DNA of 60,000 bases, taken from Lytechinus pictus. Lineage: Eukaryota. Each line of letters begins with the position of its first letter. Within the stretch, counting starts at the first letter, position 1. The stretch lies in NCBI RefSeq assembly GCF_037042905.1, contig NC_087251.1, positions 9,798,001 to 9,858,000 on the forward strand, in the 5' to 3' direction. Below, in pieces: positions 42,601 to 60,000 of the stretch. A program made the translations under genes and the position numbers. The notes beneath the pieces are model-generated. The model had not been told where the DNA came from and did no database searches. It worked only from the letters and a program-made list of their open reading frames with translations.

Positions 42601-45600
42601 AGTGTGTGTATTCTATGTGTGAATGACAGAATTTAAGGGGGGAAATAGTTTGCAGTGAATTTGACAATTTCTGGAAAAGTTATTGGCCCAACAGTGGATT
42701 GTATTAGTGGTCATGTCGGACCCTTAAATCTTGCTATTTTTGGAAAAATTACTGGCCCGAAAATGATATTTTTTACTGGTCATGTCGGACCAGTAAATCT
42801 TCCTATTTCTGAAAATCTACTGGCCCGACAGCGATTTTTACCGGTCTGGGACCGTCGGACCGCCGCTAGTGTCGAGCCCTGAATAATCATTGTGTGTTTA
42901 TGAGGATGATAAGGTCAAAGGTCATCTAGGGGTCAAATTTTGTTGGTCGCAAAACCAGGCGAGACTCGTTTCGTGAACCGCCTTGTTTATTTATGAACCC
43001 ATGTATATAATAAACTCATACGTTTCAGTCATTGGCTGCTGTATGTGTATCACTTTTATTATTTTAAATAAATAAACTATGAATATGTCATGATATCATT
43101 CTGACAAGGACTGTATTTTTTTTCTCCTCAGCGGCACTGCTCACAGCTGAGTATGTGACAGGAAAGGTCAAAGTTGAATGGGGGACTTCTAATACCCTCA
43201 AGCTCTCTGAGTAAGTTATTTCCTTAATGTTTCTATTCTATAATTATGTTTTGACTGTCTTGAACCTTCAAGACATCTCTTTCAGCAGCTCCTAAACTAT
43301 CCAAGGATGAAGAGATGTGAGATGCAATGATGAAGTAAATTGTAACTTTACATGTATGTTCACATCAGATCGATACTTTGATCTGAGATGATTTATTTTT
43401 GAAGAAAAAATGTGAATGTCTTCACTCTTCAGACATCACATGCATTATGCATAAAATTCATATAAAATATGACAGCCTTTTCCAAATTAGTACAACTTTC
43501 TCCACTCTATTAATCTTCCTATCAATCCTATTACCAACAATTTTAAGCCCTTTTATAAAGGAATGTTTTTTGTCGCATATAACATTATACTCTCCTTAAT
43601 AAACCTAGTTAAAAAAACTGTACTGTTAACCAATTTGATGATGTATTGCAGTGCTGTGACCTTGACATCATCTACTGCCATCAGTCGTTACTTGGCCAGG
43701 ACTTCTCCAGGTAGTGGTCTTTATGGTAAGACTAGCCTGGAAGCAGCTGAGGTGAGTGTTCCAATGATGAAGATTCAGTTGATCAAAGTCATCAAATTTG
43801 TGGAAATAGGCTATTTGCTTTAATTTTTAGATGAAACTTTTTACATTGTGGAAATAGTGTTTAAAATGCTGTATGTAGCAGATTTGTAAAAAAAAAAAAT
43901 AATAATAATAATTTTAGGTCGCTGTCACACCTAGAATTTTTAGCCACTGTTCATGTACCAACGTTCTGTAGGCTGGCCAAATTTTTACTCCTCAGATCGA
44001 ATTTCAATTTGATACAACACAAAATATGAAGAATTCAAGATCTTTATGAAGAATAAGTTTTGTATACAGGCAATTCTTGTTATCAAGTAAAAATGGGATT
44101 CAGAAATCAGCTTTCAATAGCCTTTGTATGCTGTCATACGCTGGCTAATACATTCAGGTGTGATATCCCCTGTTCAGTCCTTCATTATTCTTAAAAATCT
44201 AAAAACCATACTGGTGTGTGACCTTAAAGGAGAATGAAACTCTTGGAGCAAGTTAGCTTATGTGAAAGCAGAAAAATCAAAGAATAAGATCAACAAAACT
44301 TTGAGTAAAATAGGACTAGCAATAAAAGAGTTATGAGCATTTGAATGTCGAGATCACTAATGCTATGGAGATCCTCCTATTGGCAATGCGACCAAGATCT
44401 GTGATGTCACACACGTACAACTCTCCCATTTGGACACTGAAAATATACCCCAAAACATCTCTTTTTGCTCATTCTAATCATATGACAAACGATTCATCAA
44501 TGATATAATGTTGTGAAACCTCTGTACTTGTCATCTTATAAAGAGAACACATCACCTTGTGATAGACTCTATAAAAGTGAGAATATAAGTGAAATAAGTA
44601 CTAAAGTAATGAGGGAGTTGTACGTGTGTGATATCACAGATCTTGGTCGCATTGCCGATGGGAGGATCTACATGGCACTAGTGATCTCAATATTCAAATG
44701 CTCATAACTTTCTTATTATTCATTCAATCTTCCTCAAACTTTCAACAATATGTTTCTTTGATTTTTCTCTTTGATATGGATTCAGCTGGTTTCAAGGGTT
44801 TCATTCTCCTTTAAGTTCACAGGCTAGATATTTGTACATTCCCATTATCAAACAATTTAAGATACTTCTCATCAGATAATTGTCTCTTGAACTTCTAAAT
44901 GTATATGAAGCTAATATGTAGTTATTTCAGTCCAAGTCATACACACTGTTTTTTGGGGGGGAGCAGTGCTATTTTTGTTGTTGCTTCATTTGTTTATTTT
45001 TCTTTCTACGACATCAGGTTGACCACTGGTTGGACTTTGCTAACATCCGTGTGGGGTCATCCTCGGACTTCAACCAAGCTGTGGTCTACCTGGATAAGAT
45101 CCTTGGCCCTAGAACGTTTCTGGTCGGACATGAGTTGACCATTGCTGATCTTGCTGTTTGGGGTGCCCTTAAAGGTAATTCAAGCGACTTTTCTTTTTAA
45201 ATGATTTCAGTTAAACCATTATTCAATGAGAGTGATCAATTTTTTGTATTTGAAACGTCTCTGTATGCAGTTTTTTTGTGTGCAGTTGTTTCTATGTTTG
45301 GTTGGTGGATTTTTTTTTGTGGGGTGTTGCAAAAAAATTGCGATCAATTATAAGTCAAATTAAGGTTCTAAAATCATTCATAAGGTTTGAAATTAATTCA
45401 ACAATCCCTCATTTGTTTTAGCAAAGATACTTTACCTCCATGGTACATTTACATGGCTCAATGCGTCATCCATAACTGTGGAATTAATTGTTATTCCAAC
45501 ATTGACAACAACCTGGCACCCTCAAGAAGTTCAGAAGTATGAATGATATTTTTAATGAATGATTGACAATCTTCAGTTACAAGCTTGTTCATGTTTGGCT

Positions 45601-54600: not shown

Positions 54601-57600
54601 TCTAGCCAAATAGATAAGATGTTTGCTTGAAAGACATTGTTTTCAATTGCAAGTCACTACACATTAACATTTTGTTTCCTTTAAAGTAAAATATATTGGA
54701 ACCCTTCAAAATATATTTTTTTTTAATTCTTTTCATATTAGATCTTTACATGTGAGATTTGGACTTGATGTTTTCTTCTACCATAAACAGCCATCGTAAT
54801 AAGTTTTGATTTTTTCGTTTGTATTGTTCAATTGTACCTTGTGTATGCCAGTAAAAATTGCATCTTGTCAAAGGGTTATTTGTAAAACCTTTGAAAGTTG
54901 TCTTCTGTACATTTGAAGATGTGTTTTATGATTGAACCTTTCAGCAGGCACACAAGTCGTGCTACACCCTGTATCCTGATCAACATCCCTGACGGTCACA
55001 CTAAGAACCAACCTGCATCAGCTACACCAAGTGCTCCAGCTGATAAGGTAAGAATGCAAAGTTTGGGGACATCACTGTCTTTGATGAGAACTGCCCTTTT
55101 TTCACCCTTCATTTTGTTTAAATAGTTGTGAGAGAAGCAAGTATCATATGATGTGATTCATTACTTCTGTTGCTCCTCTGCCTATATCATTTTGCTATCT
55201 TTGGGGAGTGTTCTGTCTAAAGTCACACAAATTTGATGTATTAACTAAAACTTATTAAAAACGATTCTCTCCTTTTTTCTCTCTCTCTTTCTCCTCTCTG
55301 TTGTTAGAGTAAAAAGCAGCCCAAAGAGACCAAGAAGGAAGCAGTGAAGAGTGCCCCAGCTACCCCTGTGCAATCTACTGGAGATGTGGGTGACTTAGTT
55401 GCTAAGATCACTGCTCAAGGTGATGCTGTCAGAACCCTCAAGAATAACAAAGCTCAAAAGGTAAAAAAAAAGCTATAAATCTGCTATATTTAACTCATGT
55501 TCATATCTGTATTAAACCATAAAGTGGCATGGAGTAATCTTACTGCAATTTCGAACGACAAATTTTATTCATTGCCTCATATTTCATTCAGACAAAGAAA
55601 TAATTATTTATAGATCGTACTGAACAATACTTAAAATATTATAATATGTTTTGCTAATATTTATAAATTTTGTTTACATCATTCAAATGCAAAGGAGGTA
55701 TTTGATGCTCAGTTTCTATGCAGTAATTAATGCCAATTAACATAGAACATCTGAAAATGTTATAAACTCAGCTTTAAGACCCATTTGATGTCAATTCACT
55801 GAGAATGATGTAGAGTATATTTGGTTTGTATGAATTAGCCCTGAATGCGCACGATACATGTATATTACATTTCCAATGTTATACTATTGTTTAGGCTGAA
55901 ATAGATGCTGCAGTTAAGATCCTTCTTGCGCTGAAGGCTGATTACAAGAACCAGACTGGACAGGACTACAAGCCAGGAGCAGCAGCACCTAAAGCCAAAG
56001 CTACAGAGACTGGTGGTGTAGATAACTTAGTGTCAAAGATCACTGAACAAGGAGACAAAGTCAGGACTATCAAGGCCAATAAATATCCAAAGGTAGATAC
56101 CTTCTTTGATCTTTCTTCATCTTGTGTCTCACCTATACTGCTCCTGTCGATAGATTCCAGTTTGTCAAAATATGATGAAATTCAAGTATGAGAGTACTGT
56201 TGTTCACAGGCTGCAAAATCTAAAAATATTTTCTTAAAAGAGCATGAAGAATCTATGTCGTATGATAATTTTTTTTTTAAAGTTTGAGCGAATACTTCCA
56301 TGTTGTAAAGTAGGGAAATAAAAAAGCTTCTTTATTAACCTTTGATATTGACTTGGGGATCTTAGTCCAGTCATTTTAGCCCAAATTTTGACCAAACTTG
56401 GAACAAATTGCAACATAATTTTTTTCACCACATTGCATTTCTGTGAGGTCCCTTGTACAACATACTAAAAGTCCCAAACTATCGGAATAGGGGAAAGGCA
56501 TCTAATTTGCAAAAATCCAAGATGGCTGCCAAAATTAATTGATATGCCTTATCCTTAATATTTTTTGCACAGATAATGTAAAATCTTGAATGAATACGCA
56601 ATTCACTATGATTAAGATATTATAAATTGATTGTAAACGTTTTCGGGACTGTCCGGTAAATATTTTTCGAAAAATGTGAGAATTTATGCCAAAATGTCCA
56701 TGTTTTCGGTCAAGAATTTGTATGTGCGTTGATATCTTCCTGTTTTATCATTAGCATCAACATCTAATGCAAAATATCAGCATTCAACAAGAAAGGGGAT
56801 ATATCAACGAGAAAATTGATATGCTTCATGACAATATTAATGTCTTTACTTGCTTAGATTAAGGGCAAATACATTCGAATATATTACTCGATATTGCATT
56901 AAAGTGACACCAAAAAACAACCTCCGTTTTTAGCCACACCTTTGATATCGACTACAAAGCGATCGCTGGCATGCCTTTAAAGAGATTACATTAGATTAAA
57001 TCGGTCTTGCCTCGCCTTTGTTGGTGTGACTCCCGGATGTGACCGACCCAAATAAATACATGTGTGCGTATAGCGATAGAAAGGTGTATATTACTTAAAT
57101 TGATATGTGGGCAAAGGGCTTTTTCTACAAATCAAAACAACTTTTATTGTATTGAAATCACTAGGAGGCAAAAGAGTAGGCTTTTCTCTATCAGTTACAT
57201 ATAAAGAAGTGATGCCACAGCAAATCCTACCCCCTCAGGGGTATGCCGAAGTCACCAACCCATTTTTGTATTTTGCCCATTTCTTGGAAAATTCGCCATT
57301 TTTAGCCCCATTGAGGCAAAAGGCATTTCCCCTTTGCAATAAACCACTTTTATTGTTTTGTAAGCACTTGGGGATGAAAAAATAGATTTTCCTCTATCAG
57401 CTAAACAATATAAAGAAGTGCTGGCACAGCAAAGCTCATCCGCTACGGGGTTTGCCAAACTCACCCCTTCTCCATATTTTGCCAATTTATGGAAAAATCT
57501 ATAAATCCAGAGTCCTCATTGAGGCAAAAAGATGTTTCTGGTATAGTGTAAGCCATTTTTATTGTTTAAAAATCACTTGAAGAAAAAAAAAACTAGATTT

Positions 57601-59860
57601 TCCATTATCAGCTACATAATAGAAGTGCTGGCTCAGCAAAGCCTACCCCCTCAGGGGTTCCCCAAGTCTCCCCACCCTGTTTGCCTATTTTTCCTCTTTT
57701 TTAAAACAAAATCGCAGTTTTTGACCCCCCCCCCCTATTCAGGCAATAGGCATTTCTGCTATATGGTAAAGTCACTTTTATTATTTGAAACCACTTAAAC
57801 AGTTAAAGATGAATAGGTTTCGTCTATCAGCGCATCGACCCCTTCCCTCTTCAGGAGCTCCAAATTGACAGATTTTCCCATAAGTTGGCAAAATACAGAA
57901 AAGGGGTGAGTGACTTCGGTAGTATAATAGGATGTGGCAGGTCTAATAGCTACATTTCATTTTTTTCTTGAACTCTGAGATCGAGCAGGCAGTAAATGTC
58001 ATTATTTGGTGTACAATGTCATGTGACTAGCATATGATAGTTTCCATGCCTAGACCCTGTCATGTTAAACAATTAATACAATTAATCAGAATCGAATTTA
58101 TGTATTTAATGTTAAAAGTAACAGTGTTTTTGTAGTATAAATCTTTGCTTACTGATATTTATGATATAGCTATCATAGTATGAGGAGGAATGTTTATAGT
58201 AGTATCGAGTCCGGAATTGATATGATTTGCAATCGGGTCTGAGTACATAGTGTACACTAGCGTCGTCTGCTACGTAAACTAAATGAACGAATATGACCAA
58301 AACTTACCATTATCTTTATGCAAATTAGAACACTTTCCCCTATTCGGATTTTCTGGGACTTTTAGTATGGTCTTCTATGGACCTAAAAGAAATGTTCTGC
58401 ATTGGAATAAATTCTGTTGCAATTTATTCCAAGTGAAAAGTTAAAATGACTGGACTATCTCACATGAAATTAGTGTTATTGCCTTCAAGCTATTGGAAGG
58501 ACATTTAGAAACTGTTTCATTCATGTTTGAGGAATGAATTTGGGAGTGGAAGGATATCTTTCCATTCATTCCCTGCCTTGTTTATTTGTCTTTTATTACC
58601 CATAAGCTGTAAAGGTTATTGTGTGTGTGGTAATTGGTCATTTCAAGTCTGGTGTTGGTGTTGGTGTTGGAAGCACAATTTGGATTACACTTTCTCACCT
58701 CCAACACCTATTCTGAATTTACACAAATAATCAAGATCACAATATTGACAGCTCTACACCTAGTGAGAAACTTTTCAGGACCATCTTCATTTTATGTTTG
58801 GTGTTAAACTCATGTCGAAATTGACCTAACACCAACACCAAAAGGTCAACACTGAATTTGAAATCACCCAATGATTGATCTTCCATGGTGAACATTATCT
58901 CACTCTTTCTTGTAGGAGGAAATTGATGCTGCGGTCAAGGTTCTTCTAGCTCTCAAGGCAGACTACAAGAAACTGACTGGCAAAGACTACAAACCAGGAG
59001 CAGCTCCTGCTGTCAAGAAGGAGGCCGCTCCAGCTGCACCAGGAGGACCGGAGGTAGAGGCCATTGTTGCAAAGATCACAGCCCAGGGAGATCAAGTCCG
59101 TAAACTCAAGTCGGATAAAGCTGACAAGGTAAGCCAATCCAAGATCAATTATCAAGATGGTGTTTGGTGTCAAACTCATTTCGAAATTGACCTAACACCA
59201 ACACCAAAAGGTCAACACTGAATTTGAAATCACCCAATCATTGATCTTCCATGGTGAACATTATCTCACTCTTTCTTGTAGGAGGAAATTGATGCTGCGG
59301 TCAAGGTTCTTCTAGCTCTCAAGGCAGACTACAAGAAACTGACTGGCAAAGACTACAAACCAGGAGCAGCTCCTGCTGTCAAGAAGGAGGCCGCTCCAGC
59401 TGCACCAGGAGGACCGGAGGTAGAGGCCATTGTTGCAAAGATCACAGCCCAGGGAGATCAAGTCCGTAAACTCAAGTCGGATAAAGCTGACAAGGTAAGC
59501 CAATCCAAGATCAATTATCAAGATGGTGTTTGGTGTCAAACTCATGTCGAAATTGACCTAACACCAACACCAAAAGGTCAACACTGAATTTGAAATCACC
59601 CAATGATTGATCTTCCATGGTGAACATTATCTCACTCTTTCTTGTAGGAGGAAATTGATGCTGCGGTCAAGGTTCTTCTAGCTCTCAAGGCAGACTACAA
59701 GAAACTGACTGGCAAAGACTACAAACCAGGAGCAGCTCCTGCTGTCAAGAAGGAGGCCGCTCCAGCTGCACCAGGAGGACCGGAGGTAGAGGCCATTGTT
59801 GCAAAGATCACAGCCCAGGGAGATCAAGTCCGTAAACTCAAGTCGGATAAAGCTGACAAG
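36630..59860 (+). CDS. EPRS: Bifunctional glutamyl-prolyl-tRNA synthetase, 5' part (GST-like domain, GluRS, WHEP repeats). The ProRS half is expected beyond the window.
   Basis: 22 GT-AG exons join in frame. Motifs include [14 protein letters not shown] (HIGH), [38 protein letters not shown] and WHEP helices QGDxVRxLK...[13 protein letters not shown]. Confidence 0.97.
37120..37680 (+). repeat. Purine-rich (GA/GAA/GGAA) low-complexity tract
   Basis: Mostly A/G on the + strand. Confidence 0.85.
37716..38800. mobile_element. Academ-like non-autonomous DNA transposon
   Basis: CAGTCAGAC(T/C)GCAGGTCC inverted ends, 4-bp TSD CCAT. Confidence 0.7.
38920..40416 (+). mobile_element. Helitron/Helentron-derived (DINE-1/HINE-like) element with internal tandem repeats
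   Basis: gtctgtcgtccgtcc microsatellite-like start, repeated ccatctggtagagcttcatgaggttcaccaaacttctacacagaatttt units, 3' hairpin cacatca-t-tgatgtg followed by ctagtt. Confidence 0.6.
40923..42881. mobile_element. CAGGG-terminated TIR element (hAT/P-like) containing a 1.1-kb purine tract
   Basis: CAGGGCTC(C/G)ACACTA ends, AATAATC direct repeat. It interrupts a ggtcaaaggtca-type repeat. Confidence 0.75.
41105..42220 (+). repeat. Long purine-rich (GAAA/GGAA) low-complexity tract
   Basis: About 1.1 kb almost entirely A/G. Confidence 0.9.
43132..43210 (+). CDS. EPRS: EPRS exon 2
   Basis: [26 protein letters not shown], ctcag/gtaagt. Confidence 0.85.
43652..43751 (+). CDS. EPRS: EPRS exon 3 (GST-like)
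   Basis: [33 protein letters not shown], gcag/gtgagt. Confidence 0.92.
44228..44810. mobile_element. Palindromic TTAA-flanked Kolobok-like MITE (degenerate relative at ~30830-31400)
   Basis: ttaa|AGGAGAATGAAAC...GTTTCATTCTCCT|ttaa with long TIRs. Confidence 0.85.
45018..45174 (+). CDS. EPRS: EPRS exon 4 (GST-like)
   Basis: VDHWLDFA...[21 protein letters not shown]. Confidence 0.93.
45775..45914 (+). CDS. EPRS: EPRS exon 5
   Basis: SNPFSK...[15 protein letters not shown]...KQELS, donor gtatgt. Confidence 0.85.
48005..48093 (+). CDS. EPRS: EPRS exon 6
   Basis: [29 protein letters not shown]. Confidence 0.95.
48572..48698 (+). CDS. EPRS: EPRS exon 7 (HIGH motif)
   Basis: [17 protein letters not shown]...[16 protein letters not shown]. 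Confidence 0.96.
49246..49438 (+). CDS. EPRS: EPRS exon 8
   Basis: [21 protein letters not shown]...GKAYCD. Confidence 0.95.
49882..50053 (+). CDS. EPRS: EPRS exon 9
   Basis: [11 protein letters not shown]...[24 protein letters not shown]. Confidence 0.95.
50556..50789 (+). CDS. EPRS: EPRS exon 10 (KMSKS-equivalent LLSKR)
   Basis: [27 protein letters not shown]...[11 protein letters not shown]. Confidence 0.96.
51241..51325 (+). CDS. EPRS: EPRS exon 11
   Basis: [28 protein letters not shown]. Confidence 0.95.
51833..52003 (+). CDS. EPRS: EPRS exon 12
   Basis: [29 protein letters not shown]...KHPK. Confidence 0.95.
52278..52414 (+). CDS. EPRS: EPRS exon 13
   Basis: NADIGLKK...VTFINWGN. 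Confidence 0.94.
53088..53142 (+). CDS. EPRS: EPRS exon 14
   Basis: [18 protein letters not shown], phases fit the flanking exons. Confidence 0.88.
53682..53834 (+). CDS. EPRS: EPRS exon 15
   Basis: [11 protein letters not shown]...[18 protein letters not shown]. Confidence 0.94.
54043..54203 (+). mobile_element. tRNA-derived SINE (Meta-domain-like body)
   Basis: A box TGGCTCAGTTGG, B box GTTCAAACCC, gtcagaccaatagacgttaaaagatggg body. Confidence 0.75.
54386..54498 (+). CDS. EPRS: EPRS exon 16
   Basis: [26 protein letters not shown]. Confidence 0.95.
54945..55047 (+). CDS. EPRS: EPRS exon 17 (CAGCAG tandem acceptor)
   Basis: [13 protein letters not shown], end of the GluRS domain. Confidence 0.92.
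55308..55460 (+). CDS. EPRS: EPRS exon 18: linker + first helix of WHEP1
   Basis: ...[22 protein letters not shown], phase 0-0. Confidence 0.92.
55895..56092 (+). CDS. EPRS: EPRS exon 19: second helix of WHEP1 + first helix of WHEP2
   Basis: [28 protein letters not shown]...[22 protein letters not shown]. Confidence 0.93.
56355..58461. mobile_element. ~2.1-kb non-autonomous TIR element with internal ~207-bp tandem repeats (57140-57850), in EPRS intron 19
   Basis: tagtccagtcatttta / taaaatgactggacta ends plus a subterminal inverted match 56464-56512 vs 58320-58368. Superfamily uncertain. Confidence 0.7.
58633..58872. mobile_element. Small MITE with (GGTGTT)n subterminal repeats, whose right half is carried in every WHEP array intron
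   Basis: attggtcatttcaagtctggtgttg vs reverse complement attgggtgatttcaaattcagtgttg. Confidence 0.6.
58916..59128 (+). CDS. EPRS: EPRS exon 20: WHEP repeat exon, copy 1
   Basis: [28 protein letters not shown]...[22 protein letters not shown], 213 nt, phase 0-0. Confidence 0.93.
59282..59494 (+). CDS. EPRS: EPRS exon 21: WHEP repeat exon, copy 2
   Basis: Appears identical to exon 20, offset 366 bp. Confidence 0.88.
59648..59860 (+). CDS. EPRS: EPRS exon 22: WHEP repeat exon, copy 3
   Basis: Appears identical to exon 20, offset 732 bp. Confidence 0.88.
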
Positions 59861-60000
59861 GTAAGCCAATCCAAGATCAATTATCAAGATGGTGTTTGGT
59901 GTCAAACTCATGTCGAAATTGACCTAACACCAACACCAAAAGGTCAACACTGAATTTGAAATCACCCAATGATTGATCTTCCATGGTGAACATTATCTCA

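Follow-up and report, generated by a model that had tools for sequence, protein, structure and literature searches.

How the number of WHEP domains in the linker of a bifunctional aminoacyl-tRNA synthetase is changed at the level of DNA is the question raised by a tandem array of coding units in the genome of the sea urchin Lytechinus pictus. The stretch of DNA analyzed, hereinafter the window, comprised 60,000 nucleotides (C7:9798001-9858000, contig NC_087251.1) of an 811.7 Mb assembly, and the array, located at window positions 58795-60000, lies in the gene of the bifunctional glutamate/proline-tRNA ligase EPRS, where it encodes part of the WHEP linker. The array is probably a young tandem amplification in the linker of L. 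pictus EPRS, produced by a recent duplication with subsequent unequal exchange or slippage.

Structure of the Array and of the EPRS Gene

Positions 58795-60000 were recognized by Tandem Repeats Finder as one array with a period of 366, 3.3 copies, 99% matches, 0 indels and a score of 2391, and no other long-period repeat in the 10 rows obtained for the whole window was as perfect. Each unit consisted of a 213-nt exon, designated X, and a 153-nt intron (366 bp in total), so that a whole in-frame exon with its intron is repeated and the near-identity extends into the intron. On the forward strand, Tandem Repeats Finder, direct comparison of the bases and a genome search agreed in placing unit 1 at 58795..59160 (366 bp, 99% identical to unit 2), unit 2 at 59161..59526 and unit 3 at 59527..59892, and direct comparison showed a further unit beginning at 59893 and cut by the window end. 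When the units were cut at the period, they differed at offsets 10, 19 and 78 only, i.e., at 3 of 366 positions, all of them intronic, which corresponds to a divergence between units of 0.3-0.8%. Exons X1 (58916..59128, 213 nt, 71 aa, phase 0-0), X2 (59282..59494) and X3 (59648..59860), also on the forward strand, were identical at every base and had a common acceptor (tcttgtag/GAGGAA) and donor (AAG/gtaagcca). The original prediction, made from the window letters, of at least 3.3 copies of a 366-bp unit with identical exons and few intron differences is thus borne out by both Tandem Repeats Finder and base comparison.

The best match of exon X was the L. pictus bifunctional glutamate/proline-tRNA ligase-like isoform X2 (1623 aa, 100% identity), and the exons of the RefSeq protein model P0001 were mapped by tblastn to window positions 43131 to 67201, i.e., to about 7.2 kb beyond the window end. 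The Pfam domains of P0001 followed the order PF00749, PF03950, PF20974, PF00458, PF00587, PF03129 and PF09180; consequently, the class I GluRS core and the class II ProRS core are present in one frame, with the WHEP linker between them. The gene is therefore L. pictus EPRS, as had been proposed. The WHEP-TRS score of P0001 was 360.9 bits over 5 stretches, and the model contained 5 complete WHEP domains, which replaces the earlier count of at least 4 complete domains and half of a fifth.

The array is preceded on the forward strand by two linker exons. Exon Ea (55308..55460; tblastn, P0001 residues 716-766, 100%) contains a Lys-rich linker and opens WHEP 1, of which it encodes the first half (positions 1-22 of the Pfam WHEP profile). 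Exon Eb (55895..56092; tblastn, residues 767-832, 100%), 66 aa in size, completes WHEP 1 with its second half and, beyond a linker, encodes the first half of WHEP 2; it is a diverged paralogue of X. In the alignment of the Eb and X units, 43 of 66 residues were identical, in accordance with the earlier description of the two upstream WHEP exons (55308 and 55895) as well diverged. RefSeq model P0001 joins exons in the order Eb-X1-X2-X3-Y: X1 supplies the half of WHEP 2 that follows the one in Eb and, after a linker, the first half of WHEP 3, and the donor of X3 joins exon Y, located outside the window (60279-60560).

A single exon X scored 72.7 bits against the Pfam WHEP-TRS profile (PF00458; cut-off 32.5) in two half-domain stretches, of which the best comprised residues 1-31 of the exon (profile positions 23-53), with the second matched stretch alongside. 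According to this match, exon X completes one WHEP domain by encoding its second half and, past a linker, encodes the first half of another; the helix-turn-helix fold of these domains is predicted from the profile. Within the phase 0-0 exon, a Pro/Ala/Lys linker would separate helix 2 of one WHEP from helix 1 of the WHEP that follows. Because the exon is symmetric and WHEP is split in the middle of the domain, any number of units keeps the frame and recreates whole domains. With each added unit, the segment that separates the GluRS half from the ProRS half would thus grow by 71 aa, exactly one complete WHEP with its linker, and the enzyme cores would stay as they are.

A tandem NAGNAG acceptor (ttcagCAG/GCAC) was observed at window positions 54942-54947, in front of an exon starting near 54948. 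This is consistent with the single extra residue of isoform X1 (1624 aa, reading EPT-S-RHTS) relative to isoform X2 (1623 aa, reading EPT-RHTS).

The 3' End of the Array

The original prediction held that the array runs on beyond the window. When the sequence was extended (the next 20 kb were read), the repeated units proved real and no further full unit was present: the array continued for approximately 110-120 nt only and ended in a truncated copy. Copy 4 begins on the forward strand at 59893 (59893..60000 within the window, as established by genome search and sequence comparison), has its acceptor outside the window at 60014, and is identical to copy 3 through position 60108, after which it diverges into CAGTAACAAGGAGAGT and then into unrelated sequence including a 15-nt direct duplication. 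The array consists of three full units and a truncated fourth, and ends there.

In the search of the whole assembly with one unit, 44 matches were listed, with 40 scored of 878 first-look candidates. This locus accounted for 4 of the 44 matches, namely, three full units and the fourth over bases 1-229 only. No copy of the unit elsewhere in the genome was found among the matches listed, the remaining 40 of 44 being confined to its first 80 bases or so (1 to ~83).

When translation is started at the acceptor (60014), which is intact, copy 4 ends in ..KPGAAPASNKESSLV followed by a stop (also given as ..PASNKESSLV and a stop codon at 60134-60136). No GT donor in consensus context was found between copy 4 and exon Y. 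As a candidate for a used exon, copy 4 was rejected on the strength of its sequence, as it lacks a consensus donor, the only phase-0 GT sites at or before the stop have the form ctt/GTATAA, and the RefSeq models, P0001 included, omit it; it is probably a pseudo-exon. Exactly at the break of copy 4, the 15-nt direct duplication AGTAGTCTTGTATAA is repeated 2.1 times (positions 622-653 of the extended locus L011, window 60122-60153), and it may be a repair scar.

Copy Number among Alleles and Species

The number of X units differed between the protein models of sea urchins. In L. pictus, the model on this contig had 3 X units of 71 aa and 5 WHEP domains, and the older RefSeq accessions had 2 X units of 79 aa and 4 WHEP domains; the L. 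variegatus protein models had 1 X unit of 87 aa and 3 WHEP domains, and the isoforms of S. purpuratus had 3, 2 or 1 X units of 76 aa with 5, 4 or 3 WHEP domains. Outside the array, the two L. pictus RefSeq series showed 9 further residue differences, which indicates that they correspond to different alleles. The forms with 3 × 71 aa and 2 × 79 aa would then be two alleles, and the annotated protein models suggest variation between individuals. The earlier expectation that copy number is a live variable at this locus fits these annotated models, namely, the two L. pictus series, the single unit of L. variegatus and the own three units of S. purpuratus; the comparison of orthologues that had been proposed as a check likewise gave differing X copy numbers, 1 in L. 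variegatus and 3 in S. purpuratus.

The Lytechinus forms of X were identical wherever they could be aligned (71/71) and differed by linker indels only (..AAPA[SNKESAPA]VKKE.., with a second APAVKKEN in L. variegatus). The indel state was uniform within each haplotype: all three full copies on the haplotype studied were of the 71-aa form, and both copies of the other allele were of the 79-aa form. The truncated copy 4 on the 71-aa haplotype kept the letters of the long, 79-type form (..PASNKES). The 8-nt motif GCTCCTGC was present in a single copy in the 71-aa form (59003), and in the longer forms two copies of it flanked the additional 24 nt, an arrangement that matches the pattern replication slippage would leave.

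A tree of units was constructed from 24 of 30 units, six terminal pieces of 31 aa being excluded. The X copies of S. purpuratus formed a cluster (support 98/94), those of Lytechinus were identical rows, and the Eb units were orthologous across urchins (support 87/83); the amplified WHEP units accordingly grouped by lineage. Runs of near-identical units were also found in EPRS of Amphiura and Saccoglossus. Among the 120 proteins listed by a search restricted to the linker, none was an additional echinoderm protein, and a protein search for transcript fragments of L. pictus with X-X junctions yielded no match above 80% identity among 19 (39-125 aa).

The isoform models P0125, P0127 and P0126 of S. 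purpuratus (1641, 1565 and 1489 aa; 5, 4 and 3 WHEP domains, respectively) differed by one or two X units of 76 aa, which may be due to true skipping of the identical exons or, alternatively, to uncertain placement of reads during annotation. Differences in EPRS size were also observed in other animals: the models P0131, P0144 and P0163 of the cod Gadus morhua were 2082, 1923 and 1843 aa, and the mussel (Mytilus) models P0134 and P0132 were 1843 and 1699 aa, respectively. Such a spread in model length, within a species (cod) or a genus (mussels), hints at similar WHEP arrays there.

DNA Contigs and RNA Reads of Related Organisms

Of 24 sequencing runs listed for the stretch, the best contained a fraction of 0.17 of its sampled words. 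Sequences from four runs, two of them sets of DNA contigs of a close relative (organism A) and two raw RNA runs (organism B), were aligned to a reference containing one period of the array (window 55250-59160), on which extra copies are expected to appear as excess depth and as joints going back along the reference. In the Ea-Eb region, the contigs of the relative were approximately 6% different from the window (28 letters and 11 gaps per 437 nt, and 40 letters and 23 gaps per 782 nt). At position 59010 they carried an insertion in the X linker, of either 45 or 48 nt depending on the run, so that the two DNA runs differed from each other by a single Lys codon; the 48-nt form corresponds to the 87-aa unit of the L. 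variegatus type. Linker length thus varies in the taxon of the relative too.

The mean word depth of the contig containing X was 27.3 versus 27.5 and 18.8 for the flanks in one DNA run, and 81.9 versus 72.2 in the other. No joint going back was seen in the DNA of the relative among the 15 of 74 joints shown. These data agree with a single X copy in the relative, contig depth being a measure other than copy number. The contigs aligned from position 58830 onward and included, upstream of X, at least 44 nt (58830-58873) of the tail of the dispersed element described below; since this tail is already upstream of X in the relative, the insertion of the element predates the amplification.

In the two RNA runs, exon depths were about 0.6-7, and there were no exon joints at such depth. 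Most of the 884 and 1075 RNA reads aligned fell on the dispersed element, with a depth of 90-170 in the bin 58787-58917. At position 56033, all six RNA-run reads had G, as did the contigs of the relative.

Origin of the Array

The 5' edge of the array (58795) falls inside a dispersed element of approximately 245 bp with inverted ends, resembling a miniature inverted-repeat transposable element (MITE), which occupies positions ~58628..58873 without assigned strand and aligned at 78-91% with 6 of 6 fetched loci (L005-L010). In two of these six loci (L005 and L009), the segment 58828-58873 also matched the other end of the element in reverse. The first 78 bp of every array unit are the 3' tail of this element. 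Duplication driven by recombination between two element copies was rejected, as the unit junctions hold the last 78 bp only and neither a full nor a chimeric element; hence, the element is a passenger of the duplication rather than one of a pair of recombining copies. The inverted ends of the element are approximately 46 nt long, and the unit query gave 878 first-look candidates genome-wide. The Eb-X1 intron (window 56300-58520) is rich in high-copy repeats, for which word depths in the contigs of the relative were in the thousands to tens of thousands, and open reading frames (ORFs) in six frames at 57104-57798 resemble several diverged copies of one unit of ~200 bp.

A young amplification would have begun with the head-to-tail duplication of a 366-bp segment composed of the last 78 bp of the older MITE-like insertion, the 213-nt exon and 32 nt of the next intron. 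Once two copies were present, unequal exchange or replication slippage between near-identical units could alter their number. The starting point would be one exon of the long form, which is the state in L. variegatus, and one duplication in the L. pictus lineage would give the 2 × 79 allele ([79] to [79][79]). On the haplotype studied, a 24-nt deletion by slippage at the GCTCCTGC repeat may then have shortened the first copy, two more duplications of this shortened copy may have followed, and a deletion of the 3' part would finally have truncated the last, long-form copy. Such a path, from duplication through deletion and renewed duplication to truncation, would need no gene conversion. As the units are 0.3-0.8% apart, compared with approximately 6% between the window and the relative, the duplications are much more recent than the separation of the two species. 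How the units recombined, in what order the events took place, and that all three X exons are spliced into mRNA is each inferred.

Several points weigh against a young amplification. The assembly and predicted RefSeq models are the basis both for the copy number at this locus and for the use of the three exons in mRNA. In the relative, a second copy is possible, given that contig depth does not equate to copy number and that 15 of 74 joints were seen. If the assembly behind the older L. pictus model was collapsed, which is possible, its 2 units would be a lower bound. Finally, arrays of X exist in another urchin family, in S. purpuratus and in a 16.5-kb ENA contig, and contraction of an old array in L. 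variegatus is possible.

The last of these points leads to a different explanation, according to which the array is old and common to urchins, its units are kept identical by gene conversion (concerted evolution), and L. variegatus has contracted to one copy. It accords with the three near-identical X units of S. purpuratus (73/76 and 76/76 residues identical) and with the ENA contig, in which one ORF resembles Eb and four others, more diverged, resemble X, these four all running into the intron. Three of these four ORFs (P0213, P0216 and P0234) continue into similar intron-encoded residues, e.g., VCQTKVK, and P0233 into VCQT only. The first intron residues after X are alike in the ENA contig and in L. 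pictus (VCQTKVKHFYQED), which indicates that the exon and the downstream intron are homologous across families. However, L. variegatus has one copy in its protein models and contig depth is at the level of the flanks, the array edge lies inside the MITE-like element, and the units are at most 0.8% apart even in the intron. The uniformity of the indel state within haplotypes and its difference between them are explained by simple recent duplication, and the unit tree leaves the sister relation of the Lytechinus and S. purpuratus X units undecided. An old array maintained by gene conversion is therefore considered unlikely.

It is still less probable, to the point of being very doubtful, that the copy number is an assembly error (expansion or merging of haplotypes) and that the true haplotype has fewer or different units: the MetaClust protein P0232 (2033 aa, S. 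purpuratus-like), an old record that contains two copies of the block extending from X into the first ProRS exons, indicates that assembly errors have happened at the EPRS locus, but the window and the next 20 kb contain no N, the period is exact, the units carry three unit-specific single-nucleotide differences and the fourth copy is structurally distinct, the second L. pictus RefSeq series independently has at least 2 copies, and no other copy of the unit was present in the genome among the matches listed. The two blocks of P0232 carry allelic differences and look like two haplotypes assembled in tandem.

Comparison with Known Systems and Significance

The linker of human EPRS1 contains three WHEP domains that bind GAIT elements. 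In both human EPRS1 and L. pictus EPRS, PF00458 is located between the same two catalytic cores, whereas three of the five WHEP domains of L. pictus are identical young paralogues. A coding array of exon and intron units with variable copy number is known in kringle IV-2 of human LPA. In both genes, in-frame, intron-containing and near-identical units are arranged head to tail, with one module per unit; however, the L. pictus unit is 366 bp in size and is present in 3 to 4 copies, whereas the LPA units measure kilobases and number in the tens, and variation between individuals of L. pictus is suggested by two annotated alleles only.

In Ray & Fox 2014 (PLoS One 9:e98493, PMC4072531), lineage-specific amplification to 4 to 6 WHEP domains is described for EPRS of S. 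purpuratus, Saccoglossus and amphioxus, tight grouping is taken as evidence of recent WHEP duplications in several insects and annelids, and the three WHEP domains of tetrapod EPRS are presented as old and orthologous between species. As in that work, the extra units of L. pictus and S. purpuratus cluster by lineage, and lineage-specific WHEP amplification in urchin EPRS is thus a published, known kind of event. That work deals with protein domains in one genome per species, whereas here the anatomy of the DNA is described, and the words 'unequal', 'recombination' and 'concerted' are absent from the searched text of PMC4072531. A literature search on WHEP copy number and tandem duplication revealed nothing in print on within-species variation in WHEP copy number; the one listed paper that mentioned WHEP concerned plant NLRs. 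New here are the DNA anatomy, that is, a unit of exon and intron, an edge within a MITE and a decaying fourth copy, and, as far as the annotated models indicate, a series of 3, 4 and 5 WHEP domains within a genus, with two L. pictus alleles.

The number of WHEP domains is known to differ among distant animals, but the process behind this has been visible only through its products at the protein level; the EPRS locus of L. pictus shows the process under way, as it displays the unit of DNA that was duplicated together with its breakpoints, a copy in decay, and apparent differences between alleles and sister species. For annotation and read mapping, the identical exons and the pseudo-exon with an intact acceptor serve as a warning.

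On balance, the data lean moderately toward a segregating allelic series at an essential housekeeping enzyme, in which EPRS, in L. pictus itself and its close relatives, has 3, 4 or 5 WHEP domains and X exons of 71, 79, 86 or 87 residues, and in which units may be gained and lost faster than they mutate, hence the uniform haplotypes. L. pictus has a short generation time, and homozygous mutant lines of this species have been made. If the allelic series is real, L. pictus would be a natural system for studying the effect of WHEP number on synthetase function or RNA binding; if population data confirm it, natural alleles with 3, 4 and 5 WHEP domains would be available in a laboratory-tractable urchin for testing the role of linker length.

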